Shown piece after piece: positions 41,235-64,000 of a stretch of 64,000 nucleotides of DNA. This stretch comes from a virus. The stretch is from the IMG/VR virus record IMGVR_UViG_3300045912_000129, positions 1,653-65,652 of that record. One strand, written 5' to 3'. Made by a program: the position numbers and the translations under genes. Below the pieces are notes generated by a model. The model ran no database searches and was not told the origin of the DNA. It saw nothing but the letters and a program-made list of their open reading frames with translations. Position 1 is the first letter of the stretch; each line of letters opens with the position of its first letter.

Positions 41235-42782
41235 TTAGCCTTTGTAACAAATACCGTCATAAACTAATTGTTTAACTGAAAGTAGCGATTTAGCTACAGC
41301 TATTGCATTGATTAATGAATCGCAAAGTACAGAACAAGGGTCATATACTTTATAATTATTAATTTTTTCTAGTTTATTGTTTCTTAAATCTAAAGCCTGT
41401 CCTTTAGATATTTTAGATCTATACTCTTCGTAATGATTAATCAAATCACTATTAATAAGTAATTGTTTAAAAGGTTCTTCGATCGCATCTAATACAGTAT
41501 TGTAAGCTTTGTTATTTGAAGGACTGTATAAATCGTTTTTAACATTAATAAAAGTATAACCACCTCCTACGCATACTCCTTCTTTTATTGCTGAATAAAC
41601 AGCAAGAACAGCATCATCTAATCTATCTTTTATTTCTTTCATTTCTAATTCTGTACGACCTCCTGCGTATATAACAGCTACTCCTCCTGTTAAGTTAGCT
41701 AACCGTTTACGTAACCATTTTCTTTCCATATTTGATAGACTCAATTCATCGTTATCAGCATCTTCTTGTAACTTATACTTTATTTCTTCTATAATTTGTT
41801 CAACTAACTCTGTATCTTGTCTTCCGTCAAGAATAGAAGTATATAATTCTTCTACAATAACTTCACCAGCAAAACCTAAATTATTAACATCTTTAGCAGT
41901 ACCATTATCTACAACCCATGCTCCTGTTAAAGCTGCTAAATCATTCATTAAAGCTATTTTTCTATCACCAAATCCGTCATTTTCTACAACACAAACAGAC
42001 GCTCTACTTAATTCTAAGTATTGCTTAAGAGCTTTAGTAGCCATTGTTGACATGTCATTACAGAATATTAAAAGGTTAGAACCTAAACAAGCTTTTAAAT
42101 AATACTCGATATCTGATAGAGCGTGAATTTCATCATTTAGAATTAGAATATTTACATTAGTAGCTCTGTAAACCATTTCTTTAGCGTCATTAACCATAAA
42201 ACCTTCTAACCAACCTCTATGTAATTTCATACCTGCAGTTTTAACTACTACAGTTTCATTTCTTGGTGAAGTTTTTACTTCTATATCTCCATATATACCA
42301 ATTTCTTTTATAATGTCATAAATGAACTCACCAATCTTTTCATCGTTAGCTGAAATAGAAGCTACTTCTTTTAATAGTTCAGTATTAGATTCAATACTTT
42401 TAGTATACTTAGTTTTAATAGTAGTAATAATATCATTAAGAGCTTTATCAAATTCTTTAGCTAATTGATAAAAAGAATAACCTTCAGCTAACAAATCAAA
42501 ACCTTTATTAATTAAGTATTGAGCCAAAATCATAGTTGTTGTAGTACCATCTCCTGAAGAAAGCATTGTTTTAACAGCTGCTTCTTTAAGAACTGTCATT
42601 ACCATTGCTTCATAGCTATCATTACTAGAAACATGTCTAGCTACAGAAACACCATCCTTAGTAATATGAGGTTTATTTTCTTCAGTATTATAAAGTACTG
42701 TTCTACCTTTAGCACCAAGAGTTAATTTAACTGTATTAGCTAGTTGATTAACAGCTTTTAAAATCAATTCAGTAGTTGTCAT
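41235..42782 (-). CDS. groEL: Phage-encoded group I chaperonin (GroEL-like)
   Basis: Motifs VKLTLGAKGR, ITKDGVSVA, GDGTTT, GFGDRK, RLANLTGGVAVI and KDRLDDAV...EGVCVGGG. No GGM tail. Confidence 0.92.
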   Translation of the reverse strand: MTTTELILKAVNQLANTVKLTLGAKGRTVLYNTEENKPHITKDGVSVARHVSSNDSYEAMVMTVLKEAAVKTMLSSGDGTTTTMILAQYLINKGFDLLAEGYSFYQLAKEFDKALNDIITTIKTKYTKSIESNTELLKEVASISANDEKIGEFIYDIIKEIGIYGDIEVKTSPRNETVVVKTAGMKLHRGWLEGFMVNDAKEMVYRATNVNILILNDEIHALSDIEYYLKACLGSNLLIFCNDMSTMATKALKQYLELSRASVCVVENDGFGDRKIALMNDLAALTGAWVVDNGTAKDVNNLGFAGEVIVEELYTSILDGRQDTELVEQIIEEIKYKLQEDADNDELSLSNMERKWLRKRLANLTGGVAVIYAGGRTELEMKEIKDRLDDAVLAVYSAIKEGVCVGGGYTFINVKNDLYSPSNNKAYNTVLDAIEEPFKQLLINSDLINHYEEYRSKISKGQALDLRNNKLEKINNYKVYDPCSVLCDSLINAIAVAKSLLSVKQLVYDGICYKG

Positions 42783-51915: not shown

Positions 51916-52187
51916 ATTAGTTAATTTAAATAATTAGTTAGTTACTCTGGTTAATTATAACTACAAAGTTATGTTAAACTCTTTCCAAAAAATTATATAA
52001 AAATTTTAAATAGTCAAAACCTACCCCCTCCTGTTATTCAAAATTATTTTATCCCCCCCTACCCTTATCTATATGGGTTTATTTCTTTAAAAAACAGGCC
52101 TAATTTCAATTTTAAATTCAAAGTAATATAAATATACTACTCAATGATTAGAGTGTCTTAAATCGAAAGCTAGAGGGTTTAAAAGGC

Positions 52188-52253
52188 AAATTGAATTTTA
52201 GTTTAAGGGGAGTGATATTTAAAATTGAATTTTAGTTTAAAAGGAGTGATATT
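52188..52253 (+). repeat. Tandem 32-bp direct repeat (2 copies, 30/32 identical)
   Basis: AAATTGAATTTTAGTTTAAGGGGAGTGATATT (52188-52219) and AAATTGAATTTTAGTTTAAAAGGAGTGATATT (52222-52253). Confidence 0.85.
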
Positions 52254-52339
52254 ACCTCCTATAACCACCCCCCTTTAGTTTTGGGAGGATTCCTCCCCCG
52301 GTAGGCATATTGCCTATCGGAAACTTTAAAAACTAAAAA

Positions 52340-52804
52340 ATGAAAATCAATTATTCAAAAGTCCTGGCGGAGCTCCGCCAGGCAGTCCAGACCGGCTCAG
52401 GGAGCGGATGGATTTTATTGACAGAGGACTCACTAAAGGTCCTCATGAATAGCCTCGGCGTGACCTCCGCCGCCGAGCTATTAAGCAAACAAGCGGAGTT
52501 CGTCACGGTACCATGCTATTTCGTACTTGAAACCCCTCCTTCAGAAGGCAAGGGGGCAAAGTACACCAGCCTTGCAAACCCTTTCCAAGGGGTCGAGGGT
52601 GGGCTAACCACCATCGACTGGAGCAATAAGATCTCTACTCCATACGCCTCCGGAGTAATCCGGAAGTGTACCAGAGAGGGTATTGTTTTTTGGTTAGCAG
52701 AAAAGCCGACCGGAAAATACGAAACTGGCTTTTACTACCGTGTCGCCCGCAAGGGCGAATCCAAGGCCTCTGTTAAACAGGGCCTCACGAAAAAACCTGT
52801 ATAA
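52340..52804 (+). CDS. Hypothetical early protein
   Basis: 154 aa with an A-rich leader; first gene on the + arm. Confidence 0.6.
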   Translation: MKINYSKVLAELRQAVQTGSGSGWILLTEDSLKVLMNSLGVTSAAELLSKQAEFVTVPCYFVLETPPSEGKGAKYTSLANPFQGVEGGLTTIDWSNKISTPYASGVIRKCTREGIVFWLAEKPTGKYETGFYYRVARKGESKASVKQGLTKKPV

Positions 52805-52961
52805 GGTTTCCCTAGTTAAATAGGGTTTTTACGCCTATATATACTGACCAAATATAGGCAATATACAGGTCCCCGCGCTATGGGTTAATAGCACGAAGAT
52901 CAACCCCATTATTATAATGGGGTTTCTTTTTATAAACCATTTTGCAACGTAGTTAGCATTT

Positions 52962-53596
52962 GGGGGCAGAGAAAAGGTATAGCTTAGGCTATATTCGCGC
53001 ATCTGTCCCGGCAAGAAGACCTGTCGAGCGCGAACAGGCTATCCTACTCTAGTCGGGAAGTAGGACGAACAGAACCGACCTCCACTTCGGTGTGGAGAAA
53101 TTTCCCTTCGGGGAGCCCTTGTACAGTGGGTGAGGTCAACCTCAACTGTACGATGAACCGCCATGGTGACATGGTACTTAACTCGGTAGTGGGAGTTAAG
53201 CTAAGGGTTGCAAGAAGTTACTCTACGGAGTAATGAGCACTCACTACGGCAGTACCCTACGGGGTGAGGTGTCCTAACAGGCCCTCTCATGAACTGCCCA
53301 CACAGACCCAGTGACGACTGGTAATCTGTGGGATGACACACCGCTGACGAGCGGGAATCGCCTAGTTGACTAGGCGTGGGTTGATCACCCTAACAATCCG
53401 TTCCTACACGTTATGTAGGTTGGTATATCTCGTCGTTGGGAGTATACCGTAAAAAGAAAGAAGCCTGTGGCACGCAGGTGAGCACTCAACGATGACCTCA
53501 CGTCTTACTAAAAATCAAGTAAGAGTGTAGGAAAAAGGAGGAGCGGAGTGGCTTTTCCTAGGATCAATGTGGTTACCACATAAACGATCCAGTGCA
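52962..53596 (+). ncRNA. Candidate large structured ncRNA 1 (about 640 nt), upstream of tRNA-Glu
   Basis: No ORF in the track. More than 15 consecutive hairpins, including C(UUCG)G at 53085 and 53106 and C(UACG)G at 53223 and 53257. Confidence 0.6.
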
Positions 53597-53606
53597 AAAA
53601 TTTTAA

Positions 53607-53678
53607 AGCCCATTCGTCTATCGGTTAGGACGTCAGATTTTCATTCTGAAAAGAGGAGTTCGATTCTCCTATGGGCTG
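53607..53678 (+). tRNA. trnE: tRNA-Glu(UUC), no encoded CCA
   Basis: Acceptor AGCCCAT/ATGGGCT, anticodon arm TCAGA-TT TTC AT-TCTGA, T-arm AGGAG-TTCGATT-CTCCT. Confidence 0.92.
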
Positions 53679-53706
53679 CAAAGCTACTTGCATTTGCAGT
53701 AGCCTA

Positions 53707-53895
53707 ACCTCCCCTACAGCTGCTATGCCGTGTATTGGCTCTAAAGCACTTAGGGGAGGGATTTAATTTTATTCTCTCTTATACTGCAATGCCCTGGCCA
53801 TTTGGAGCAGCGGCAAGACAGGTAAGGAGAATAAAATATCAACAAACCTCCCCTACAGTTGCTTGGGTTCAAGCCGTGAAGCACTTAGGGGAGGA
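53707..53895 (+). repeat. Two copies of a CCTCCCCTA...TAGGGGAGG irregular hairpin
   Basis: Copies at about 53707-53760 and 53847-53895 share ACCTCCCCTACAGYTGCT...AAGCACTTAGGGGAGG. Confidence 0.75.
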
Positions 53896-54152
53896 TTTTA
53901 ATATTAAAACTCCGTTGGTCTATCGGAGTATAAAACATAGACTCCCGCGTTATTCCTGCGGGTATCCCCTCTGGGGATAATAGCTCCCTCATAGAGGGTA
54001 TATCTGACATTTTGCCGTGGTGTCAGATGAATTAGAATGCGGCACCTCGCTAGCATACCGAGGTATATAAATAGTATGCTTATTTTTTAATTCCCCTTAC
54101 GGGGCGTTACCCTTGACGAGACAAGGCGTGACCCTGGAAGGGGTTTTGAATC

Positions 54153-54296
54153 ATGACGATTAAAGAAATATTTAATCTTCTGGTCGACATGTACGACCAG
54201 GAGCTCTACTCCCTCGAGCGTCACCACGTAGGTGATGCTCAATTGTTGGTAGCCTTGGAAAAGGCTATCAACATCTTGAGACCTTTCGTTAAGTAG
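54153..54296 (+). CDS. 47-aa protein (paralogue A, HVGD motif); not in the ORF track
   Basis: MTIKEIFNLLVDMYDQELYSLERHHVGDAQLLVALEKAINILRPFVK. Similar to the next ORF and preceded by the same leader. Confidence 0.65.
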   Translation: MTIKEIFNLLVDMYDQELYSLERHHVGDAQLLVALEKAINILRPFVK

Positions 54297-54495
54297 TGAA
54301 AGGTCTCAAACTCCGTGTCATTCCGGAGTCTAAACATAGAATGACAAACCGCGTTACCTTCCGCGGTATATAAGTAGAAGGCAGTAATATTGACCGCCTA
54401 CACCTGGCGGTATATAAATAAGGTGTATTATTTAATCCCCATTAGGGGCGTTACCCTTGACGAGACAAGGCATAGCCCTGGAAGGGGTTTTCGAT

Positions 54496-54666
54496 ATGGT
54501 GATTACTGAAATGAGCCCAAAGGGCTTAATCAATTTAATATTCAACCTTTATCAGGTTGAATATTATAAAATGCGGGGTCACGTAGGTGATCCCGCCTAC
54601 ATGGCCCTGCTCGAAAAATTAATCGAGCAGCTCGAGGCTTATGTAGGGGAAGACTGGTTCCTCTAA
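54496..54666 (+). CDS. 56-aa protein (paralogue B, HVGD motif)
   Basis: MVITEMSPKGLINLIFNLYQVEYYKMRGHVGDPAYMALLEKLIEQL. Start revised to the ATG at 54496. Confidence 0.65.
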   Translation: MVITEMSPKGLINLIFNLYQVEYYKMRGHVGDPAYMALLEKLIEQLEAYVGEDWFL

Positions 54667-54892
54667 CATAAGCCTCAACTCCGCGTCATTCCGGAGTATA
54701 AATATAGAATGACAACCACGCAACCTCCCGTGGTATACAAATAGGAGGCAGAAGAAATGACCTCGCTGACATACCGAGGTATATAAATAGTATGTTATTT
54801 TTTGCAGTGTAGTTGCACTGCCACCATAAAGTAGTAAACGGGGTGTAAGCCGTTATAACTACATATTGTTCACCTTCCATCCCCGAACTATT

Positions 54893-55507
54893 ATGGAAGG
54901 GAAGAAAAAGGATCGCGAGATCCGTCACTCAGCCCGTAAAATACACGGGTTGAAGAGTCTTCCTTGTCCGCCGATAGTTCGGTGGATGGGAGCATTTGGC
55001 ACTTTTAATGGGGAAGAAAGTGCCAAATGGGAGGCCTCCGACACACGAATGAAGTGTGCGGAGGTACTACTGCCCAATGGCAATGGGTCTTTTATGTCCA
55101 AATGCGGACAGAGATCCATTGGTATTGGTCTCTTAGTAGATCAAGCCAGAACACCATTGTTCAGAGCGTACAACTACGACGCTTGGACGAACAATGGTAA
55201 AAAGGGTTCTGTACCCTTTGGCGACTCTACTAAGTTGTACAGCATGTACAAAACCCACGAAAACTTAGTTTATGTAACTAAGTATCGTGAGGTGGCGGCC
55301 ATGCTACAACTCCACCATAACTACAACAGTTATTTGTGGACAGAGGCCACCATTGGAGACGGGAAGCGAGCACCCGTCTACAAGGCAGTAGTTTGCGATA
55401 CTGCTCGCAGCTGGGCAGTGCGCCAGCAAGCCATAAAAATGGCTGCAGCACTGAACGTTGAGGTCATCTGGGTAAACGACCTCAAGGCTATGAACTTCCC
55501 CACATAG
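54893..55507 (+). CDS. Hypothetical early protein (204 aa)
   Basis: ATG at 54893, followed by a terminator. Confidence 0.65.
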   Translation: MEGKKKDREIRHSARKIHGLKSLPCPPIVRWMGAFGTFNGEESAKWEASDTRMKCAEVLLPNGNGSFMSKCGQRSIGIGLLVDQARTPLFRAYNYDAWTNNGKKGSVPFGDSTKLYSMYKTHENLVYVTKYREVAAMLQLHHNYNSYLWTEATIGDGKRAPVYKAVVCDTARSWAVRQQAIKMAAALNVEVIWVNDLKAMNFPT

Positions 55508-55567
55508 CTCCTAGCAGACGGCACCTCTCTGGTTTTGCAGAAGCTGCCGGAAAAGAAACAAAAAAAA

Positions 55568-55597
55568 AGGAGGTAGACCAGACTACCTCCTATTTTT
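55568..55597 (+). terminator. Intrinsic terminator (possibly bidirectional)
   Basis: A-run, AGGAGGTAG-ACCAGA-CTACCTCCT, then ATTTTT. Confidence 0.8.
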
Positions 55598-55638
55598 CAA
55601 CTAAAATTTTCTTTGAAAGAGAGAAGAAAATTTTTTAA

Positions 55639-56175
55639 CGGGTGAGGGGTGAAATTCCCTGTGGCTAACGACCCGGCTACTATATACATGTTGACATGTA
55701 ATTATAGTTAGCGAACAATGTAGCCTATGGTACTCTCCCAATAAAAGGGTAGTCTTATAAGACTATAGGGAAACCGAGAGTACGTTTACAATAATGACGA
55801 TGATGCAGCTTTACCTGCTAGAAACATCTAGTTATATGTAAACGAGGTGAGTCCTCCAAGTGCGGCACCAGGCTGAGTGAGGGGATGCTGGTGCATTGTT
55901 ACTATTTCCTGCGTAGTAACAATTATTAAAGGTGATAGTGGTACAATCACCTTGCAGTGTTACAAAGAGAGATACTAGGGAGTGGCGTCCCGAAAAGATA
56001 CCTGGCAAGTATCAGTATCGAGAGTAACAAACGGGAATATCGTACCAACGAGGAACACAGGTTCCATAGTCTGCCCGTCCGATAAAGTCCCAATCCCAAA
56101 GGTAATGGGGATACTTATTGGAGAAAGAAGAGCCGTGCCACGCGGTAAAGTATGTGGGAGAGTAAACTCTAAATC
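55639..56175 (+). ncRNA. Candidate large structured ncRNA 2 (about 540 nt)
   Basis: Nested stems (GGCTAC/GTAGCC, GTACTCTC/GAGAGTAC, CGTTTACA/TGTAAACG, GCACCAG/CTGGTGC, TTGTTACTA/TAGTAACAA, AAGGTGAT/ATCACCTT). No credible ORF. Confidence 0.6.
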
Positions 56176-56627
56176 ATAACCAGCTGAAGATAGATACTTT
56201 ATATTTATCTCCAGCTGGTTATATTAAACCATTTGCAGTGTAGTTAGCATTGAAACATAAAAAGTAAAGGCGTTGATCTTACGCCTTAATTGATGCCTTA
56301 ATTGGCTAGAGAAGAGATCAAACCCCTGGTTATACTGTTCGCCTCCGAAAGCGCTGCTTCTGACTTGGCAACATGTATAAAGAATCCGACAGGGCATATC
56401 ACCGTTCTTAGTAGAGCTTCTTGGGTGATAACGATTCTAATATTAATTTAACTCCCGAAATGAAACCAAGCGTTCCTTTTTGAAAGAAAAAGAAAACGCT
56501 TGGTTTCTATCAAACCCTTTGCAGTGTAGTTAGCATTAACCGCGAGAGGCTATCCGCGGTATACAAATAGATGAGCCATTAATTGTTAATAAACCCTCCC
56601 GCTAGCATATCGGGAGTAATAAATAAT

Positions 56628-56828
56628 ATGCTTGTTATGACTCCAATCTTTATTCAGGTGGGGACTACCGTCTACGTGGGCGGTGGTCTCCACCTTGCCC
56701 AGTTTGCCATAGACTGGGCAACAAGAATAGGGAAGGAGTATACTGTACTCCCTTTCGGAGTACAATTCTCCTTCTCATCAGTAGACATGGCCTCACAGGC
56801 CTATGATCTACTGAGATCTATGGCTTAA
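56628..56828 (+). CDS. Small hypothetical protein (66 aa)
   Basis: ATG at 56628 or 56638. The listed TTG start runs through a pseudoknot element. Confidence 0.5.
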   Translation: MLVMTPIFIQVGTTVYVGGGLHLAQFAIDWATRIGKEYTVLPFGVQFSFSSVDMASQAYDLLRSMA

Positions 56829-57036
56829 TTTTATCCCGCTGGCATACCGGGATTAATAAATAGTATGCTTATTTTTAACCATTTGCAGTGTAGTTAGCAT
56901 TGAAACAACTCTTGACGAGGAGTATAAACTACGTATCAGTTCAATCGTCATACGAACTGATTAGCCCATGACGAAATCGGAGTGTGGGACCTCCAACTGT
57001 TTTTTTTACTTCATTAATTAATATATATATTAAATA

Positions 57037-57942
57037 ATGAAGTTTCTAGTTCTCGCCAAACCACTCGCGGTAGAGTTTGGCAGAGAATCCCTTATAGAGG
57101 AATTTATCTCCTCTATGGGGGCGCGTGTGCTTGCGAAAAAGCACATGGTGTGCGATTCGTCCAGGATCGCACGCCATTACCAGCAATTTGCTGGCAAGCC
57201 TTTTTTCCAGGGGCTTGTAAAATATTATACTGGAAAAAATATTGTCGCATATATGTGCGAGTGCGACAATATTGAAGTTCTCATGGCTATCCGCGAAGCC
57301 ATGGGGACAGCTAAAGTTTCTCCCAATTCATTTCGGGAGAAACTTATTGGAGACGTCTATGCAGAACGTTTCCAATCAGTGGGTGTCATTGACAATGGCA
57401 TCCATTGTAGCGATTCTGCTGAGGAAGGACTGCGAGAAATTGCAGTATGGTTTGGTGTGCCACCGACTTCCTCTCGCACAGAAATGGCACACAAGGCGGT
57501 ATGGAAGATTCTTTCTTCCGTATCCAAAGTAGACTCTCTGCAATACGCAGGGGGCGAACACGATGGCACTGCTATCGAGGGTAGTGTCATTGATTTGGAT
57601 TACCGCCTATTGACTAACGACATGCCCTTTGTCGTTAGCCAACTCGAAAAAAAAGGGCTAGTCATTGACAAGCGTAGTGTTGATGACGAAAGTGGGGCTG
57701 AATATGTTAAATTTGAAATCCGTTTTACGGGTGGCAAATGCGACATTGCAGTAGTTCCCACTGCAGCCTACGCAAACCAAGTAAGTAAATCTCATCTGAT
57801 TTACTTGGTTTCTGATACTCTCAAAGATGAGGTAAGAGCTATTAAAGCTAGTGCGAAAGCTACTGGTGATAAACAGCTCTACAAAGACGTAAAGCGGCAA
57901 TGTCGCAAACGTCTACTTGAGAGTATCAACTGGGTGGACTAA
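57037..57942 (+). CDS. ndk: Nucleoside diphosphate kinase fused to a Pol-beta-type nucleotidyltransferase domain
   Basis: N-terminal NDK: KP, HY...GKPFF..LV.Y and NGIHCSDS (phospho-His), ending EIAVWF. C-terminal: YAGG...GTAIEGSVIDLDY and KCDIAVVP. Confidence 0.8.
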   Translation: MKFLVLAKPLAVEFGRESLIEEFISSMGARVLAKKHMVCDSSRIARHYQQFAGKPFFQGLVKYYTGKNIVAYMCECDNIEVLMAIREAMGTAKVSPNSFREKLIGDVYAERFQSVGVIDNGIHCSDSAEEGLREIAVWFGVPPTSSRTEMAHKAVWKILSSVSKVDSLQYAGGEHDGTAIEGSVIDLDYRLLTNDMPFVVSQLEKKGLVIDKRSVDDESGAEYVKFEIRFTGGKCDIAVVPTAAYANQVSKSHLIYLVSDTLKDEVRAIKASAKATGDKQLYKDVKRQCRKRLLESINWVD

Positions 57943-58165
57943 ATAAAGAGAATGTGACGTCCACTCTTGCGTACCACGAGCGCATACTCGTGTAGCTTTT
58001 TTCTAATACGTTTTGTAGTTACCCAACAAAACGTATATACCTATGCCGTGATTCTATTTACTAGATAGCGTAGGTGCAAAGGATACTGGACACCTTTGAA
58101 CAGGAGCATTGGCAGAGTATAGATGTACTCCCCTCAGCCATTAACCACTCAATAAATAAATAAGA

Positions 58166-58720
58166 GTGGATAAAAAAATCTTCTTGTCTATCTACCAGCA
58201 GATAGACACAGATTTTCAGAGCTACGCAGCCAGCGTATGCTCTGTTTTAGGAGGAAACTTCCTCCCTGGTCCCATGAAAACATGGGAATCTTGCAGCCGT
58301 AAAGCAAAAGCAGACGGCTGCGAGATTAGTGACTTGAAAGACATCATCAGATGTTCTTTCATCTTCACTACCGAGGAGGAAGTTATGTATGCGATGAATC
58401 GCATACAATCCCTTGCTGAAGTTGTACGAGTAAAAAATCGTATGACTTCTAAAGGATACAGAGATGTGCTCATCAATGTATCCTTCATGGGAATTGTATG
58501 TGAAATACAATTGCATACAGCTCTTGGTTTAGCAGCCAAAGACGGAAAGGTGATCAATCACCCGACCGTTAATACTTGGTCTGCTAAACTTGGCCCCTTT
58601 GCTGGATGGGGTCACAAGCTCTATGAGCTTGAAAGAGCAGCCTCCCATCCGACTGTTGCAGCTATCATTGCTGTAATGGGTGTATGGTATTACGGATTAG
58701 TCCGTAAACTACTTTCGTAG
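58166..58720 (+). CDS. RelA/SpoT synthetase-like (small alarmone synthetase-fold) protein
   Basis: PMKTWES..RK, DLKDIIRCS, KGYRDVLINV, CEIQLHT and GHKLYE match SYNTH-domain motifs. GTG start. Confidence 0.7.
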   Translation: MDKKIFLSIYQQIDTDFQSYAASVCSVLGGNFLPGPMKTWESCSRKAKADGCEISDLKDIIRCSFIFTTEEEVMYAMNRIQSLAEVVRVKNRMTSKGYRDVLINVSFMGIVCEIQLHTALGLAAKDGKVINHPTVNTWSAKLGPFAGWGHKLYELERAASHPTVAAIIAVMGVWYYGLVRKLLS

Positions 58721-58781
58721 TACCATACAAAAAACTCAGCTATCCAAGTTTCTCGGTTTAGAGGATAGCGAACTACTGTTT

Positions 58782-58900
58782 ATAAGTTACAAGCAGCGTG
58801 TAGTTAATCTACAGGTTAAGAAGATGTGTTATCTTCTCAGGCTGTCTCTGCCAGGGCACAAAAGTGCGTCTAGTAAAGAGGTTCGCAGCTTGTAACTTAT
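58782..58900 (+). ncRNA. Multibranch RNA-like element closed by a perfect 13-bp stem
   Basis: ATAAGTTACAAGC (58782-94) pairs with GCTTGTAACTTAT (58888-900). Inner hairpins TGTAG/CTACA, GAAGAT/ATCTTC and GCAC/GTGC. Confidence 0.5.
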
Positions 58901-58912
58901 AAAATAACTTAT

Positions 58913-59287
58913 ATGACAAAAGTATTCAATTTTGGACACCCACTGTCCCAAAGTGCTATCACTAAGATCGAACAATACTTCGGTCAAGTACAGCACATCA
59001 AAGTGGGTGTCCAATTAAATGTTTTCGATGCGGACGCACCAGGCATCGAACAACAAGTATTAGACGTGGTGCGACCATACGCTACCGATTTTAACGGAGC
59101 GGAGCGTATGGTAATCATTAGTCCAGGAATGAGCAATGCTGCATGGGTATTAGCAGCAATCATTCATGGATTATCGGGGAGATTCCCCGAACTTGTTGAG
59201 CTTCGTCTCAACTCCGATAAAGTCTTTGACTTTTATAGAGTCATCGACTTGCAGGAGTTTAGAAACGAAGTCCGCAAGATCCGTTAG
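58913..59287 (+). CDS. csx15: Csx15-like protein (type III CRISPR accessory, candidate ring nuclease family)
   Basis: FNFGHPL, IEQYFG, PG...AAWVLAAIIHGLSGRFPELVELR and IDLQEFR match the Csx15 pattern as recalled. Confidence 0.78.
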   Translation: MTKVFNFGHPLSQSAITKIEQYFGQVQHIKVGVQLNVFDADAPGIEQQVLDVVRPYATDFNGAERMVIISPGMSNAAWVLAAIIHGLSGRFPELVELRLNSDKVFDFYRVIDLQEFRNEVRKIR

Positions 59288-59349
59288 CAAATATACCCTG
59301 ATTAACAGCTTATGGCACAGGGTATTTAATAACTATAAATCTAAACACT

Positions 59350-59703
59350 ATGATAAAAATAACTAGTGTTTCACAAATATTAAAAGAGGGTTTTACCCTC
59401 GACTTCCTAGTAGGTAAATACATCGCCTACAAAGGATGTATTATCCCCATAATTAACACTCCAACTCTGGAGGTTAATCAATGGGGATTACTACCAGACG
59501 AGATAGAACATCTCGTCAATTTGGATGAGGGGCAAATAGAGTATGAAACTACGTTTGTAGTTTCAGATAATCAAAAAGATTTAGTTCCTTTTCTTGGACT
59601 AAATCCATGCGCTCTCTTCTCACTGGAGGTTAAAAAATACTCCCCTCATACAAACATGAGTGAGGAGGATTTTAAGTACCTCCTTAATTTATTAACAATT
59701 TAA
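59350..59703 (+). CDS. Hypothetical protein
   Basis: 117 aa with ATG and an A-rich leader. Confidence 0.55.
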   Translation: MIKITSVSQILKEGFTLDFLVGKYIAYKGCIIPIINTPTLEVNQWGLLPDEIEHLVNLDEGQIEYETTFVVSDNQKDLVPFLGLNPCALFSLEVKKYSPHTNMSEEDFKYLLNLLTI

Positions 59704-59934
59704 AAATAGCCAAATCAAACCATCTTTGCAGTGTAGTTAGCACTAAAACATATCCCGCTAGCATACCGGGATCAATAAATAGCATGCTTCTACTACTAAG
59801 CAGACGTTTCGATACGTCGTGTTAAATAAGGGCTTAGTAGTAAGGGAGCGTGTCCCGTAGATTAAAACGCTGACTGACAGGAAAGACTGTCTTACCTAGC
59901 TGTGAACTCGTATGAGGTGAGGCTAGGGACATCC

Positions 59935-59995
59935 GGGGTAGAAAATGGCGATTGCTGTAACAACAGCAAAGTGGGTTCGATTCCCACCTATCCTT
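59935..59995 (+). ncRNA. D-armless tRNA-like element (61 nt)
   Basis: Acceptor GGGGTAG/CTATCCT, canonical T-arm GTGGG-TTCGATT-CCCAC, a 10-nt linker in place of the D-arm, and a 7-bp hairpin with a 4-nt loop in place of the anticodon arm. Confidence 0.6.
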
Positions 59996-60082
59996 GCAAA
60001 TTCCCGCTGGCATAACGGGTAAAGTATGCTATATTATTAACCAAACCCGCCGTGCCGGGGTATAATAGCACGATTTAAACGT

Positions 60083-60304
60083 ATGAAATTTAATTTTCAA
60101 ACCATCTTCATTCCCTCCTTGAATTTGGAGGTGAATGAGTTCCAATTTTTGAGCCTTCGGGCTCAAGTTAAACAAGGAGTACTCCCTCCCTTTGATTTTA
60201 CCGATACCAACGGTAAAGTCATTGGAAGCGTAGACTCCAACGGTCGTGTAGAAGGAGAATACCCCTTCACCGACCTTAACGACATGTTAACTACTCTTTT
60301 GTAG
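60083..60304 (+). CDS. Hypothetical protein
   Basis: 73 aa, flanked by pseudoknot elements. Confidence 0.55.
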   Translation: MKFNFQTIFIPSLNLEVNEFQFLSLRAQVKQGVLPPFDFTDTNGKVIGSVDSNGRVEGEYPFTDLNDMLTTLL

Positions 60305-60464
60305 TTAGCATGTCCCCGCTGGCATACCGGGTAAAGTATGCTACCGTAACACCTCGGTTATAATAAGGTGCAGTAATGACTCTGCTGGTATACCGGAGTA
60401 TAAACTAGTATACTGAAACTTCGTTTCTTTGAAAGAAAAAGGAAACGATTAAAAAATTAAACTT

Positions 60465-60737
60465 ATGATGAACAAAGAAATTTTAGATCTCCTTGAGATG
60501 ATTCTCAAAGGAGATCAAGAGGCAATTGCCTCTATTATAAATACCCAAATCAATCGGTTGCAAATTGCAGCCGACGATTGGGACAACAACCATCACGGTA
60601 GCAATAGCTCCATCTACCGTGAGTATCTAGAGATGGAGCTTAGTACAGCAACTGGTATGATTGCTGTACTGAAAAAACATAATCATACCACACTTGCAGA
60701 TAAACTCAGCATTGCTGTAGCTTATTCTGCAGTGTAA
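60465..60737 (+). CDS. Hypothetical helical protein
   Basis: 90 aa with an A-rich leader. Confidence 0.55.
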   Translation: MMNKEILDLLEMILKGDQEAIASIINTQINRLQIAADDWDNNHHGSNSSIYREYLEMELSTATGMIAVLKKHNHTTLADKLSIAVAYSAV

Positions 60738-60856
60738 TTTTTTCCGCTAGCATACCGGGTAAAGTATGCTATCAAACCCTTTGCAGTGTAGTTAGCTATA
60801 CCGCTTGCATACCGGTTATAATAGTATGCTATTCATTAACCAAAAACAATCAGACC

Positions 60857-61102
60857 ATGAAAATAAAAATTAAATCCACCAGTGCATTAGCACGGTGGAT
60901 CAAAGCCATCGAAAACAGTCTCAATATTGCTCGTTCTGAGCAGTATGAGGCAGCTTATATGGGGGAAGATTCTCTTTTCTACGACGAAATCGTAGAAAAA
61001 GGAGAGTCAACTCTTCGTCTCATTGAGAGAAGAGTTAAAAAACTCTCCCCCAAAAAACAAGCAATTCTTAAGCCTCTCATTGAGAGAGCTTGGAATGCTT
61101 AA
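60857..61102 (+). CDS. Small helical protein, paralogue of 63557-end
   Basis: STSALARWIK...LRLIERRVKKLSP...ILKPLIERAWNA aligns with the last ORF. Confidence 0.65.
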   Translation: MKIKIKSTSALARWIKAIENSLNIARSEQYEAAYMGEDSLFYDEIVEKGESTLRLIERRVKKLSPKKQAILKPLIERAWNA

Positions 61103-61221
61103 AACAAATCGCGTAACCTCCCGCGGTATATAAGTAGGAGGCGTTTATAGTTAACACTAGCCCTTTGACAGCTGGGGCTATATAAATGAGCTGTTAATTC
61201 TTTTGAAAAACCAATAAAACT

Positions 61222-61638
61222 ATGAATATGACACACAAAAAAGAAGAAGTAGTTGTAAAACCCTACTTACTAAACATCAGTAACCACCCCTCCTCTGGAT
61301 GGACTGATAAACAAATCATGGCTGCCCGAAGAGATTATCGGGCAATAATTGACTTCTCTTTTCCAAACGTCGACCCTGAGCTCGACGAGGAAGGAGTTCG
61401 TCAACTAGCAGAGAAAACCATTTTTGACATTCTTTGGCATTTGCCAGAGAGAAGTGAGGCATTAGTAGCCCACGTCATGGGCGAAATGTCCTTGGTATAT
61501 CAAATGGTCAATCTGCTGGAGTCTAAAAACATCACTTGTATTTGCAGCACCACCAAGAGGATTGTGGAGGTGCTTCCAAACGGACAAAAACTCAGCAAGT
61601 TTGAGTTTGTCCGTTTTAGACCATATGTAGCTAAATAG
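61222..61638 (+). CDS. csx20: Csx20-like protein (type III CRISPR ring nuclease family)
   Basis: LLNISNHPSSGW...Q..AA, DFSFPNVDP, HVMGEMSL, CSTTKR and FEFVRFRPY match the Csx20 pattern as recalled. Confidence 0.82.
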   Translation: MNMTHKKEEVVVKPYLLNISNHPSSGWTDKQIMAARRDYRAIIDFSFPNVDPELDEEGVRQLAEKTIFDILWHLPERSEALVAHVMGEMSLVYQMVNLLESKNITCICSTTKRIVEVLPNGQKLSKFEFVRFRPYVAK

Positions 61639-62169
61639 CACATATGGTTTAACCGCTAGCATACCGGTTATAATAGTACGCTAACCGTGTAATCTCTCAC
61701 GGTATATAAATAAGAGTAGTATTGACCCTGCTTGCATATCAGGGTATATAAATAGTATGCTTAACTAAACATAAAGGAGTAGAGTACTCGCACCTCTATT
61801 TTCTTTTATGTTTATTTTAATTTATCAACTTTACTTCTTATGGTTTTTAATTTAATTACTTTTCTTTTTTTTCTTTAAGACTTCCCAGGAGTATCTTGTA
61901 GTGCGAGCAAGAGAAACTGGGTGTATCCTATTCTTTTGAGGACAAGAATAGGAAAAATAAAGTCCTCCACTGCTTTAGTGTCATTTTGATACTAAGGCAG
62001 TGTTTTAACCAGATGTTCTTGAAACAAAGAGAACACTGGTTATTAAACTTTTTGCAGTGTAATTAGCTGCAAACCTCTTTAGCATATAGAGGTTATAAAG
62101 AATATGCTGTTTTATGCTTGAAAGAAATTAAAAAGTCTTTCAAGTTTTATTAACATAAAATTTATCACT

Positions 62170-62529
62170 ATGAATCTTCTCTCTTCACTCGACAGTGTAA
62201 ACTTGTTACTGGCAGCAAGTTTACCCTTTGAAGCTTTCTATGAGCAATTCATGGAGAGCTTAACTTTTTGCCGTGAATTTCATGGTAAAGGTTTTGACAA
62301 AGTTGACTTTACCAACTTTGACAATGCCAGCCTTAAAAGACCTGATCTTCTCTTGGGTGTATGTTTTACACCCAAGTATGTGTTCCTATATGCTTACCAT
62401 GGCAAATGGGAGCACTCAAGTCGAGTCAAACTCTCTGCTGAAACGTCTCTTTCAGACTACTTGTCAGCAGTAGAGTCTGTTACCAAAACCTTTGCAGAAA
62501 TAGTTTACAACTACCTCAAAGGTTTGTAA
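62170..62529 (+). CDS. Hypothetical protein
   Basis: 119 aa with ATG. Confidence 0.55.
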   Translation: MNLLSSLDSVNLLLAASLPFEAFYEQFMESLTFCREFHGKGFDKVDFTNFDNASLKRPDLLLGVCFTPKYVFLYAYHGKWEHSSRVKLSAETSLSDYLSAVESVTKTFAEIVYNYLKGL

Positions 62530-62566
62530 AAAACCCCGCTAGCATACCGGGTAAAGTATGCTAATT

Positions 62567-62728
62567 ATTGAGTAAGCTAACGGCTTACAAGTGCAGCAAG
62601 GAGAAATGCCTTGTGATGCAGCCAGCTAGTCATATGACTAACGGTATATGTTATGCAGACATCTGAGAGATGATGCTCCACATATAGCCCGGAGATGGTG
62701 TTTAGTTAGTCCACTAAGCTTACTCAAT
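62567..62728 (+). ncRNA. Multibranch RNA-like element closed by a perfect 12-bp stem
   Basis: ATTGAGTAAGCT pairs with AGCTTACTCAAT. Inner hairpins CAAGG/CCTTG, TAGTCA/TGACTA and CATC/GATG. Confidence 0.5.
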
Positions 62729-62832
62729 TTTTAATGAGTGATCTTGAAAGAAATGACAAGATTGCTTATTACTAACAGCGTAACTTCTCAAGTTTAAAAG
62801 GAAAGTTAATCTTGTGAATTACGCTATAATAT

Positions 62833-62903
62833 ACTTCATTCGTCTAATGGTAAGACGCTAGATTGTCTATCTAGAGATAAGAGTTCGATTCTCTTATGAA
62901 GTG
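62833..62903 (+). tRNA. trnD: tRNA-Asp(GUC), no encoded CCA
   Basis: Acceptor ACTTCAT/ATGAAGT, anticodon arm CTAGA-TT GTC TA-TCTAG, T-arm AAGAG-TTCGATT-CTCTT. Confidence 0.92.
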
Positions 62904-63047
62904 CAACCGTGTAACTTTCACGTTAAAAAAGTACTCTGTAACACTCAGAGTTTAAATATAAAGTGTTTTCACTATTTATTTTTTCACCACCCCGCAAGGG
63001 CGTTACCCTTAACGAGATAAGGCCATGCTCTGGAAGGAGATTAAACC

Positions 63048-63377
63048 ATGGTAAAAGTACAGTCAATCAGTGTAGTGTGCCAGCTAAAAGGCTTGAAAAG
63101 CCTTGTTAACAAGTACTGTCTTCTTCCTAGTGGAGAGATAGTGTTTGTTAATAAATGTCCAAAGATAAAAATGGACCATACAGGGAAAACTATGGTAGAG
63201 TTTAATGGGGATCAATGCGTCCCCATTGAGAGAACCATAGCGTTTTCCAAACACCAAGAACCATTAACTAATTTTCAAACCCTAGCTAACAAGCTATGGT
63301 GTTTGAAGATTAGGAAAAGACCCTCAGACGTACCACTTGGTGTTTACCGGGTGTGTAAAACGTTGATGGGGGTATGA
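63048..63377 (+). CDS. Hypothetical protein behind the third structured leader
   Basis: 109 aa. Confidence 0.55.
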   Translation: MVKVQSISVVCQLKGLKSLVNKYCLLPSGEIVFVNKCPKIKMDHTGKTMVEFNGDQCVPIERTIAFSKHQEPLTNFQTLANKLWCLKIRKRPSDVPLGVYRVCKTLMGV

Positions 63378-63556
63378 TCTTGGTAAAACCGCGTAACTCC
63401 CGCGGTATACAAATAGGAGCAGCATTAATCCGCTAGCATACCGGTTATAATAGTGTGCTATATTAAACCTTTTGCACTGTAGTTAGCAACAAACCTCGTA
63501 AGCACACCGAGGTATATAAGTAGTGTGCTATTCATTAACCATAAAAACATCAAACC

Positions 63557-64000
63557 ATGAAAAGAACTTTTCAGACGAACCAAGAGTTCGTCGCAGCAAT
63601 GTACCAAATGAGAGCCATCAGCACCCTCACTAAATGGATCAAACAGATCCAATCCATTCGCAGCATTGCTCGTTATGAAGAGCATGATGCGGTTATGGGA
63701 GGAGCCGACTCCTCTCTGTACGAGGTTCTCGTTCCTTCAACCGATGCTTCTCTTCGCATCATTGAAAGGGAAGTTGCAGAACTCTCCCCTGAAGACCAAA
63801 CCATCTTCAAGCCTCTTATTGATAGTGCTTGGGGTGCTTATTCCCCAACCGAAAAAGCTGCACACTTAGAGGAGGACCAAGAGTTCTCTGAAACAGTGTG
63901 CAAAAAAGCGGTCAGCACACTCAGCAAATGGCTGAAAAATCTCCAAGAAATCCGTATCATTGTTCGTCATGAAAAACATGATGCGATTATTGGAGGAGGA
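63557..64000 (+). CDS. Internally repeated helical protein (3'-truncated; not in the ORF track)
   Basis: ATG at 63557, open to the window end. AISTLTKWIKQIQSIRSIARYEEHDAVMGG is repeated as AVSTLSKWLKNLQEIRIIVRHEKHDAIIGG. Confidence 0.7.
   Translation, partial: MKRTFQTNQEFVAAMYQMRAISTLTKWIKQIQSIRSIARYEEHDAVMGGADSSLYEVLVPSTDASLRIIEREVAELSPEDQTIFKPLIDSAWGAYSPTEKAAHLEEDQEFSETVCKKAVSTLSKWLKNLQEIRIIVRHEKHDAIIGGG

Follow-up and report, generated by a model that had tools for sequence, protein, structure and literature searches.

The plus strand of a 12-kb island (40-45% GC) within a contig that otherwise has 28% GC, derived from a distant crAss-like phage, carries a family of compact H-type pseudoknots that constitute a new RNA motif with a putative function. 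These units are all in sense orientation, all intergenic and all located inside the GC-rich island, where every short gene, the non-coding RNAs and one tRNA are flanked by them. The positions given below refer to the analyzed window, a 64,000-nt stretch of the contig.

The original prediction had listed 33 sites and interpreted them as about 30 dispersed, covarying H-type pseudoknots. A pseudoknot was identified at 31 of these sites, comprising 27 clean instances and four (56539, 59752, 61651 and 61926) accepted despite a single mismatch, a bulge or an extended L3. The units present an S1 stem of 3-6 bp, an L1 loop of 1-4 nt, an S2 stem of 4-8 bp, almost no L2 and an L3 loop of 4-11 nt, the latter being A-rich as originally described. 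Two further units had been overlooked, one following a tRNA-Asp gene (62908-62932) and one just outside the window end (contig positions 65794-65829). The site at 54002 was rejected as a plain 7-bp hairpin lacking S2, and that at 53944 fits a pair of simple hairpins better. A strict scan of positions 52001-64000 (S1 and S2 of at least 5 bp each with a combined length of at least 11 bp, no more than one G-U in either stem, L1 of 1-3, L2 of 0-1 and L3 of 4-11 nt) returned 36 pseudoknots on the plus strand and 10 on the minus strand, against 2.9 ± 1.5 (maximum 6) on dinucleotide-shuffled sequences (n=30). The length of L3 correlates with that of S1 (Spearman 0.75), a relationship anticipated for a loop that has to span S1. 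The units identified in the window were as follows.

53909..53943 (+): unit with 6-bp S1, 7-bp S2 and 7-nt L3; strict scan
54044..54080 (+): class-A unit with a T-run on its 3' side, 5' of the repeated leader of a 47-aa gene; best model score, 62.2 bits
54310..54426 (+): three units (54310, 54348, 54393), 13 nt past the stop of ORF 54153-54296
54678..54797 (+): three units (54678, 54715, 54760), 11 nt past the stop of ORF 54496-54666; the last continues into a T-run plus a 17-mer-like sequence
56539..56632 (+): two units (56539, with bulged S2; 56596), between 17-mer 56519 and ATG 56638
56833..56869 (+): unit 4 nt past stop 56828, with a T-run and then 17-mer 56883 on its 3' side; 59.8 bits
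59752..59788 (+): unit 9 nt past 17-mer 59726, S2 with one A-C mismatch; 5' side of a 214-nt structured non-coding stretch
60003..60072 (+): two short-L3 units (60003, 60046), between a tRNA-like element and ORF 60083-60304
60315..60414 (+): three units (60315, 60343, 60379), 10 nt past stop 60304; strict scan
60743..60771 (+): unit 5 nt past stop 60737, directly 5' of 17-mer 60781
60800..60829 (+): unit 3 nt past a 17-mer, then a 27-nt A/U-rich leader to ATG 60857
61108..61196 (+): two units (61108, 61158), between stop 61102 and ATG 61222; strict scan
61652..61760 (+): three units (61652, one mismatch; 61684, 4-bp S2; 61725), past stop 61638
61929..61967 (+): atypical unit (AT-rich S1, 1-nt L2, 11-nt L3) within a non-coding stretch; strict scan; weakest accepted member
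62072..62109 (+): unit about 3-4 nt past 17-mer 62052, upstream of ORF 62170-62529; 34.2 bits
62535..62563 (+): unit 5 nt past stop 62529; 5' side of a non-coding stretch leading to tRNA-Asp
62908..62967 (+): two units (small, 62908; 62933), 3 nt past tRNA-Asp, upstream of the third copy of the leader
63388..63460 (+): two units (63388, 63430), 10 nt past stop 63377, upstream of 17-mer 63472
63493..63529 (+): unit 5 nt past a 17-mer, then a 27-nt A/U-rich leader to ATG 63557; 51.4 bits

The fold is supported at the covariation level, helix by helix. In a gapless alignment of 16 units anchored only on S1' and L3, 87.5% of S2 cells pair, compared to 60.0 ± 3.6% after shuffling (a value reached by none of 500 shuffles) and 27-45% when the partner is slid, and double changes are observed in six of the seven pairs. 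When 3' flanks were swapped among 34 candidate units, S2 length averaged 3.34 ± 0.25 instead of 5.59, the observed mean being reached in none of 5000 permutations. The consecutive units at 54310, 54348 and 54393 carry three different S2 sequences that are each complementary to their own partner. For S1, 98.1% of cells pair in a model-fitted alignment of 29 rows, compared to 76.8% after shuffling, with compensatory changes at all six pairs. The excess of G-T (14) over A-C (3) at paired positions on the plus strand identifies the sense strand as the folding strand. Both helices are hence strongly covarying, and the divergence of their sequence with pairing kept by compensatory change indicates selection on the fold itself.

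All 31 units occupy non-coding positions in an island with a coding share of 52% (P about 1.6e-10). The first units of cassettes begin 4-13 nt past stop codons, and three-unit cassettes present spacers of 0-2 and 8-11 nt. A T-run lies directly 3' of five units in the window and of one just beyond it, and most units (about 25 of 31) lack a U-run. In addition, a promoter-like 17-mer was matched nine times with up to three mismatches, against 0.25 expected, and eight of these matches correspond to the following island copies.

52942..52958 (+): two mismatches; hairpin and T-run 5', 600-nt structured RNA 3'
56233..56249 (+): exact; long hairpin 5'
56519..56535 (+): exact; next unit 3 nt downstream
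56883..56899 (+): exact; preceded by a unit with a T-run
59726..59742 (+): exact; next unit 9 nt downstream
60781..60797 (+): one mismatch; unit on both sides
62052..62068 (+): two mismatches; hairpin 5', next unit about 3-4 nt downstream
63472..63488 (+): one mismatch; unit on both sides

Five of the eight copies have a unit 1-9 nt downstream, and the upstream side shows an ordinary hairpin in some cases (52902, 56170, 56457, 62000) and a unit in the others (54760, 56833, 60743, 63430). The 47-aa gene and a 56-aa paralogue each present the same leader and a three-unit tail, revealing that gene-plus-unit cassettes have been duplicated, and the last ORF contains a repeat to which an 81-aa gene is paralogous. 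The island also encodes Csx15 and Csx20 ring-nuclease homologues, which give it the appearance of an anti-defence region.

Outside this contig, 53 distinct contexts, almost exclusively phage or metagenome contigs, each carry one copy of the core unit. A stop codon lies within 60 nt upstream in 28 of these, an ORF start within 80 nt downstream in 25, a terminator-like site within 75 nt in 10 and an adjoining tRNA gene in five, some units being located between tRNA genes. The S2 sequence GGCAUAC or close variants of it recur in marine, soil, freshwater and gut phages, in a search whose pattern itself required GGCAUAC. In 16 T7-like contigs, the site downstream of a gp2.5-like SSB gene harbors the pseudoknot in three lineages, with compensatory changes in S1 and S2, and a GC hairpin followed by a T-run in most of the remaining ones. 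The unit thus interchanges with ordinary terminator hairpins at an orthologous site.

The positional evidence is best accommodated by an alternative already named in the original prediction, that of transcript-end caps. We consider the odds slightly short of even that the units are cis-acting elements defining and protecting RNA ends. According to this model, the units would be transcribed within plus-strand RNAs of an early or anti-defence island rich in GC, bracketing each short cistron, the non-coding RNAs and one tRNA. On the 5' side, a unit just past the promoter-like 17-mer would lie at or near the transcript 5' end; on the 3' side, one to three units would follow a few nucleotides beyond the stop codon. 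A coaxial helix of 9-14 bp, locked by the A-rich loop in its minor groove, could define and protect these ends, denying 5'-end-dependent nucleases an unpaired 5' tail and stalling 3' exonucleases once endonucleases have cut the A/U-rich spacers. The unit may also prevent mispairing between adjacent segments, and together with a U-run it could end transcription. The family would represent a local expansion of the single-copy intercistronic pseudoknot found in many unrelated phages, which probably arose as entire gene-plus-unit cassettes were duplicated and then drifted in a compensatory manner. Structured repeats separating the cistrons of polycistronic RNAs are known from T7 RNase III sites and Escherichia coli REP elements, which set and protect segment ends, but these are simple or bulged hairpins with known enzymes, whereas the units are pseudoknots with a conserved A-rich loop. 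Several observations sit uneasily with end protection: the recurrence of S2 across phages hints at a sequence-specific partner rather than a purely structural role, mRNA stabilization does not need a unit wedged between two tRNA genes, and a simple block to exonucleases would hardly seem to call for three tandem units past the 47-aa gene.

A close structural parallel is the T4 gene 32 leader pseudoknot (S1 4, L1 1, S2 7, L2 0, L3 5, as read from NC_000866), which matches the short-class units (S1 4, L1 1, S2 7-8, L2 0, L3 4-5) almost exactly. Like the units, the T4/T2 leader folds as an H-type pseudoknot within a phage mRNA and has an A/U-rich unstructured stretch 3' of it. RNase E cuts 4 nt upstream of the T4 pseudoknot, which thereby becomes the 5' end of an unusually stable product, the most stable T4 mRNA (PMC3014915). 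This parallel invites the interpretation of the units as gene 32-type operators, in which the pseudoknot would nucleate cooperative binding of a phage or host SSB along the A/U-rich leader, co-repressing the island genes as SSB accumulates. The shared geometry, the presence of GGTAAAGT in both the T4 operator and short-class units, the 25-30 nt A/U-rich leaders up to the ATG 3' of several units (60800, 61158, 63493), some with UUAA resembling the UUAA(A) repeats of T4 (PMC3014915), and the SSB gene adjoining the unit in the marine T7-like group are all consistent with it. In that group, however, the unit lies downstream of the SSB gene and not upstream, and many units precede another unit, a terminator, a tRNA or a non-coding RNA instead of a start codon. 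The T4 pseudoknot is a single copy tied to the SSB gene and serves gp32 autoregulation, whereas the present phage has about 32 copies, whose stems have diversified and which flank many unrelated small genes, non-coding RNAs and a tRNA on either side. The window shows no link to SSB, no SSB gene was identified in the analyzed part of the contig (about 43% of the genome by CheckV), and the sequence homology to T4 shown is limited to a shared 8-mer. We hence regard an operator role as unlikely.

A slightly more doubtful interpretation holds that units are excised, for instance by tRNA-processing enzymes where tRNAs adjoin them, and act in trans by decoying or sponging up a host factor that binds RNA or a nuclease involved in defence. 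Six independent contexts place units 2-9 nt from tRNA genes, the distance to tRNA-Asp here is 3 nt, and normal tRNA maturation would release them. The ring-nuclease homologues of the island point in the same direction, and a recurring S2 in unrelated phages would suit a conserved partner. Nonetheless, the more than 12 different S2 sequences in this single phage would need many partners or a shape-only reader, and so close an association with stop codons, promoter-like motifs and T-runs is predicted by a cis element, not by a free-standing RNA gene.

The library of type III antitoxin mimics envisaged by the original prediction is a special case of this trans-acting interpretation, and it obtained no positive support and failed the tests applied to it, in contrast with the structural reading, which proved correct. 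Type III antitoxins (ToxI, CptI and TenpI, 34-45 nt) and phage pseudo-ToxI are H-type pseudoknots like the units, and the prediction had invoked GGUAUAUAAAU as the CptI junction. CptI combines a one-base L1 with a 9-nt A-rich loop in the S1 minor groove, its long loop comprising A27-A29, U30 and A31-G35 (PMC4627078). The features common to the units and CptI/ToxI are limited to this generic fold, with a short L1 and a long A-rich loop. Type III antitoxins form near-identical head-to-tail repeats directly upstream of the toxin gene and are processed by that toxin, whereas the units are diverse and dispersed, with no head-to-tail tandem array detected by TRF. The contig contains no ToxN-family gene and no defence-toxin match, and Rfam searches with the units returned no family matches even at permissive thresholds. 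The commonest unit sequence was found in 13 viral and 63 metagenome stretches, but in only one of 185,579 prokaryote species genomes, and is therefore not a copy of a common host antitoxin.

It is likewise improbable, marginally more so than a trans-acting role, that the units are RNA polymerase signals, with nascent-RNA pseudoknots causing pausing, termination or processive antitermination by the host RNAP or by the virion polymerase injected by crAss-like phages, whose early promoters and terminators are not known (bioRxiv 10.1101/2020.03.07.982082). Six units are directly followed by a T-run and then by a new promoter-like motif, terminator-like hairpins alternate with the unit at the orthologous T7-like site, and the ten terminators downstream of units in other phages are canonical, as expected if the unit modulated them. 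The scarcity of U-runs argues against this role, and three consecutive units past one gene, or a unit just past a promoter, do not conform to a terminator layout.

The units could also mark cassette boundaries used in recombination, the repeated promoter-plus-structure modules acting mainly as homology patches for the shuffling of small genes, much as in the promoter-early stem-loop modules of T4-type phages, with the RNA fold being secondary. The duplicated cassettes and the 81-aa paralogue would agree with this, but it is very improbable, since recombination requires sequence identity, the units have diverged with their pairing maintained in both stems, and single-copy relatives in other phages cannot serve as repeats.

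Consecutive small H-type pseudoknots are also found in the upstream pseudoknot domain of tobamovirus 3' UTRs and in PK2-PK4 of tmRNA. As in the three-unit cassettes, three pseudoknots lie there directly past an ORF and adjoin a tRNA-like structure, although these are single domains, of plant-virus RNAs and of one bacterial RNA respectively, with different sequences and different partners, and the resemblance does not imply homology.

A strict scan for H-type pseudoknots on the plus strand of the GC-rich island, evaluated against dinucleotide shuffles and the minus strand, returned 36 pseudoknots, compared to 2.9 +/- 1.5 in the shuffles and 10 on the minus strand. [quoted passage not shown] With the S1 hairpin as sole anchor, pairing of each loop with its own 3' flank averaged 5.6 nt, but only 3.3 +/- 0.25 nt when flanks were swapped among units, and none of 5000 permutations reached the observed value. 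S2 was analyzed on an ungapped alignment of 16 units anchored on S1' and L3, because MAFFT alone missed the structural register and the model-fitted alignment placed the variable loops in insert columns. Of the S2 cells, 87.5% were paired; shuffling lowered this value to 60% and sliding the partner to 27-45%, and six of the seven S2 pairs presented double changes. In the model-fitted alignment (29 rows), S1 was paired in 98% of cells, with compensatory changes at all six pairs. More than 12 different S2 sequences occur among units spread over 10 kb.

The feature is real and statistically secure, and constitutes a new RNA motif family. The dispersed, covarying H-type pseudoknots of the original prediction are hence confirmed, with covariation in both helices. 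Two of the sites it listed are withdrawn, the one at 54002 being a plain hairpin and that at 53944 better described as a pair of hairpins; four others (56539, 59752, 61651 and 61926) have imperfections and the rest hold. Two additional units were identified, one at 62908-62932 and the other immediately beyond the end of the window. A pseudoknot-like fold at 53677-53703 overlaps the 3' end of a tRNA-Glu, and its L3 is not A-rich.

Paired positions include 14 G-T and 3 A-C combinations, indicating that the sense strand is the folding strand. The length of L3 scales with that of S1 (7-11 nt for an S1 of 6 bp and 4-8 nt for one of 4 bp; rho 0.75), A makes up 63% of L3 and pyrimidines 75% of L1; this scaling and loop composition are those of a true coaxial pseudoknot. 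AAAU-like stretches lie inside L3, away from the unit borders. Almost every unit has an L2 of 0 nt, and the two stems are free to vary, features that, together with the lack of any Rfam match under permissive filters in a 500-nt piece with six units, led us to reject preQ1-I-like pseudoknot riboswitches. A sigma-70 promoter reading of the TATAAT-like L3 was discarded on the grounds of its variable length (4-11 nt) and the lack of a -35 partner; promoter-like sites numbered 35, compared to 24 +/- 5 in shuffles, which is not a clear enrichment. A sigma-54 reading of CTGGCA was likewise rejected, since inspection by eye located no TTGC element at the required spacing. Short ORFs crossing some units (e.g. 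with an ATG at 54757) were not treated as coding, their frames and stops not being conserved between cassettes (groups of two or three neighbouring units).

The source IMG/VR contig spans 66.2 kb, with a CheckV completeness estimate of 43%. Its large terminase shows about 27% identity to the terminases of crAss-like and Flavobacterium phages, identifying the contig as a distant crAss-like phage. Bases 1-52000 have a GC content of 25-34% and harbor a minus-strand structural module encoding the large terminase, the portal, a GroEL-like chaperonin (41235-42782, minus strand; PHROG E 1.8e-110), the major head protein and ORFs of 1100-1950 aa. Five such ORFs (window 3-24278), which yielded no Pfam match, may include a virion RNA polymerase block of the crAss-like type. 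From about 52260 the GC content rises to 40-45%, and all genes are small and encoded on the plus strand. This 12-kb island (window 52260-64000, continuing to about contig position 64200) has a coding share of 52%. AT-rich repetitive, phage-like sequence returns at contig 65850, just beyond the window end, which argues for an island within the genome and makes an assembly or end-joined chimera unlikely as the source of the GC jump. Part of the island is also present on a 990-bp contig from a second sample. Neither the island nor the units were detected in relatives identified via the large terminase (50% identity, five loci, one on a contig of 87 kb) or in the early region of Cellulophaga phage phi14:2.

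Features of the island and its borders (window positions unless stated otherwise)
52188-52253: AT-rich 34-nt tandem repeat, left border of the island
53607-53679, plus strand: tRNA-Glu(UUC)
58913-59287, plus strand: full-length Csx15 homologue (NCBIfam 60.9 bits, cut-off 35)
61222-61638, plus strand: Csx20 homologue (PADLOC 109.5 bits)
62833-62904, plus strand: tRNA-Asp(GUC)
Contig 65850-66227: short direct repeats, right border of the island

Both Csx15 and Csx20 belong to the ring nucleases, which break down the cyclic oligoadenylate signalling molecules of type III CRISPR systems and are known from viruses as well (bioRxiv 10.1101/2024.09.24.614671; PMC13148439). Based on homology, the two island genes are likely directed against type III CRISPR or cyclic-nucleotide defences, and their presence suggests that the island is probably an early counter-defence region. 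The island also encodes a 301-aa protein (57037-57942, plus strand) in which an uncharacterised C-terminal half is fused to a nucleoside diphosphate kinase domain at the N terminus (Pfam E 4.7e-18), and a 204-aa protein (54893-55507) for which the only matches among 5.8 billion proteins were the protein itself and the 990-bp contig of the second sample.

Coding sequence contains none of the 31 curated units, although it makes up 52% of the island (P about 1.6e-10). Downstream of a gene, the nearest unit begins 4-13 nt beyond the stop codon, and spacers within two- or three-unit cassettes measure 0-2 and 8-11 nt. Structured non-coding stretches and the tRNA-Asp are also flanked by units. A T-run directly follows five of the 31 units in the window, as well as the unit beyond its end. 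This low proportion, and a terminator scan that called no unit on the plus strand, led us to reject the units as intrinsic terminators.

The units share the island with a promoter-like 17-mer, TTGCAGTGTAGTTAGCA, for which nine matches with at most three mismatches were found against 0.25 expected, eight of them being plus-strand copies in the island.

Plus-strand island copies of the promoter-like motif (window positions)
52942, 56233, 56519, 56883, 59726, 60781, 62052 and 63472, plus strand: motif of 17-24 nt, AAACCnTTTGCAGTGTAGTTAGCA

The consensus reaches about 24 nt. An ordinary hairpin or a unit invariably precedes the 17-mer and a gene or non-coding RNA follows it; in five of the eight cases a unit lies 1-9 nt downstream. 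This order of hairpin or unit, 17-mer and unit corresponds to that of a terminator, a promoter and a 5' structure. The 17-mer is a candidate compact promoter and, given that none has been found for phi14:2, might represent the first early promoter to be recognised in a crAss-like phage. An exact 16-mer of the motif gave 15 single matches in IMG/VR, with no units near any of them, and these were attributed to chance.

Searches with the commonest unit sequence, as a pattern of 22 specified bases, matched 13 other IMG/VR contigs, 63 metagenome stretches and one of 185,579 prokaryote species genomes. These matches represent 53 distinct contexts from marine, freshwater, soil, groundwater and gut samples, in which the unit is single-copy and has the same orientation as its neighbours. 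In five whole records, including two genomes at least 92% complete, a covariance model detected no further copy. The neighbouring genes are diverse, encoding a Mu-like transposition protein, a gp2.5-like single-stranded DNA-binding protein (SSB), DNA polymerase and the small and large terminases. A stop codon lies within 60 nt upstream in 28 of the 53 contexts, an ORF starts within 80 nt downstream in 25, a terminator-like site occurs within 75 nt in 10, and tRNA genes are abutted at 2-9 nt in five. In these contexts S1 is lengthened by covarying flanks, reaching 8 bp in one lineage. In a blastn search of 50,697 deposited phage genomes, no cultured phage matched a 41-nt unit; in an uncultured faecal phage record, a unit variant lies 7 nt upstream of a tRNA-Met. 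Metagenome contig Ga0209557_1006193 carries a phage tRNA array (17 Rfam tRNA matches in 5.1 kb) with one unit between tRNA-Leu and tRNA-Lys, and also a group I intron. Rfam searches of 14 loci from other phages identified only tRNAs and one group I intron. Three IMG/VR matches to a class-A L3 pattern fell inside genes and were dismissed as chance.

Among 16 T7-like contigs, the region downstream of the gp2.5-like SSB gene contains the pseudoknot in three lineages, with compensatory changes in both stems, and most of the other contigs present a plain GC hairpin and T-run at that orthologous place. The pseudoknot and a terminator-like 3' hairpin can therefore take each other's place, and the same holds for units and hairpins before the 17-mers of the island.

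To our knowledge, the single classic case of a small cis-acting pseudoknot in phage mRNAs is that of T4 gene 32, and its leader is the nearest known object to the units. Applied to the T4 genome, the same scanner yielded an S1 of 4, L1 of 1, S2 of 7, L2 of 0 and L3 of 5 for this leader, followed by an A/U-rich stretch; the units share the 1-nt L1, 7-bp S2, coaxial stems and 5-7-nt L3 of this geometry. Some units are also followed by A/U-rich leaders, but no downstream gene encodes an SSB, and in the T7-like relatives the unit follows the SSB gene instead of residing in its 5' leader. In T4, RNase E cuts 4 nt upstream of the pseudoknot, the RNA on the 5' side of the cut decays quickly, and the gene 32 mRNA left by this processing is the most stable in T4 (PMC3014915).

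The location of units after stop codons and after the promoter-like motif, their interchange with hairpins, the occasional U-runs and their restriction to the sense strand suggest that the units may act in cis to define and protect RNA ends, a tentative reading that we consider quite possible, if short of probable. The three-pseudoknot 3' domains of tobamoviruses and tmRNA, and intercistronic RNase III or REP structures, provide functional analogies. This end-defining role leaves unexplained the recurrence of one S2 sequence in unrelated phages and the units wedged between tRNA genes, for which reason three less likely rivals are also considered. That the units are operators for a cooperative binder, as in gene 32, is doubtful.

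That the units are released as decoy RNAs is rather unlikely, with antitoxin mimicry making up a small part of that probability; the probable early counter-defence region, with its Csx15 and Csx20 homologues, nonetheless keeps an RNA-based counter-defence role worth testing. The original prediction had proposed a library of decoys mimicking type III (CptI-like) antitoxins, a label that the comparison does not support, in view of the lack of a tandem array, a ToxN-family gene, a defence-toxin match or an Rfam match. Tandem Repeats Finder identified no array over any unit in 52000-64000. The toxin search by name covered ToxN, and at E up to 1 its model PF13958 (ToxN_toxin) had no match in any frame of the 66-kb contig. 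Ten island proteins scanned with PADLOC and Pfam matched no toxin family, in agreement with the earlier statement that no toxin gene was recognised. No Rfam 15 family matched a unit at E up to 10, a result limited to such antitoxin families as Rfam may contain; across the whole window (gathering scores), the island (E up to 5) and a 500-nt piece (E up to 10), Rfam reported only two tRNAs and noise. The CptI junction sequence to which the original prediction likened the units is not borne out by the text of the CptI structure paper, which describes the long loop as AAA-U-A..G (PMC4627078). The only feature that the units have in common with type III antitoxins is the H-type pseudoknot core, evident from covariation in both helices and common to many unrelated RNAs.

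A role as polymerase signals is unlikely. It is distinctly unlikely that the island is an RNA-based counter-defence locus beside the Csx15 and Csx20 homologues, in which pseudoknots would be released, partly by tRNA-processing enzymes, as a diversified pool of mini-RNAs soaking up RNA-binding or RNA-cutting host immune proteins, and the single-copy phage version would be the ancestral decoy; the targets could include type III toxins, or cyclic oligoadenylate-activated RNases and tRNA-cutting effectors. Recombination modules alone are a very unlikely explanation, because pairing is conserved while sequence changes.

Two features appear to be undescribed. The first is a conserved pseudoknot that measures about 27-32 nt, lacks an Rfam family and is found almost exclusively in phages; many unrelated phages have one copy per genome, located downstream of stop codons, ahead of terminators or within tRNA arrays. 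The second is its roughly thirty-fold multiplication in one phage, a unique expansion that leaves an entire island of small genes and structured RNAs punctuated by units. If units do define and protect RNA ends, they would represent a portable, sequence-flexible module setting RNA ends and RNA stability, and a way into early-region expression in crAss-like phages, where neither promoters nor terminators are known. Should they act in trans instead, they would define a novel class of RNA effectors in phages.

Other structured RNAs are encoded on the plus strand of the island. A GC-rich non-coding stretch of about 600 nt (52958-53560), directly after a copy of the promoter-like motif, has a predicted folding energy far below that of shuffles (z -5.0) and matches no Rfam family. 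The structured non-coding RNA at 59789-60002 (z -3.2) produced only a partial match to the tmRNA T arm in Rfam (E 0.0065) and no ARAGORN call; its 3' 70 nt fold in a tRNA-like manner but lack a D arm, combining an acceptor-like stem of 7 bp and a canonical T arm with a long hairpin. The island further carries three copies of a structured 5' leader, each about 55 nt long.

Copies of the structured 5' leader (window positions), core GCGTTACCCTTGACGAGACAAGGC
54095-54152, plus strand: leader copy
54440-54495, plus strand: leader copy
62990-63047, plus strand: leader copy

This leader, which had no Rfam match, ends in a GGAAGG-type ribosome-binding site directly before the ATG of small paralogous genes and is a possible translational control element. 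The paralogous small gene families (54153-54296 and 54496-54666; 60857-61102 and 63557-64000) have been duplicated along with their leaders and pseudoknot tails, and the last ORF (63557-64000) holds several copies of an 81-aa domain.
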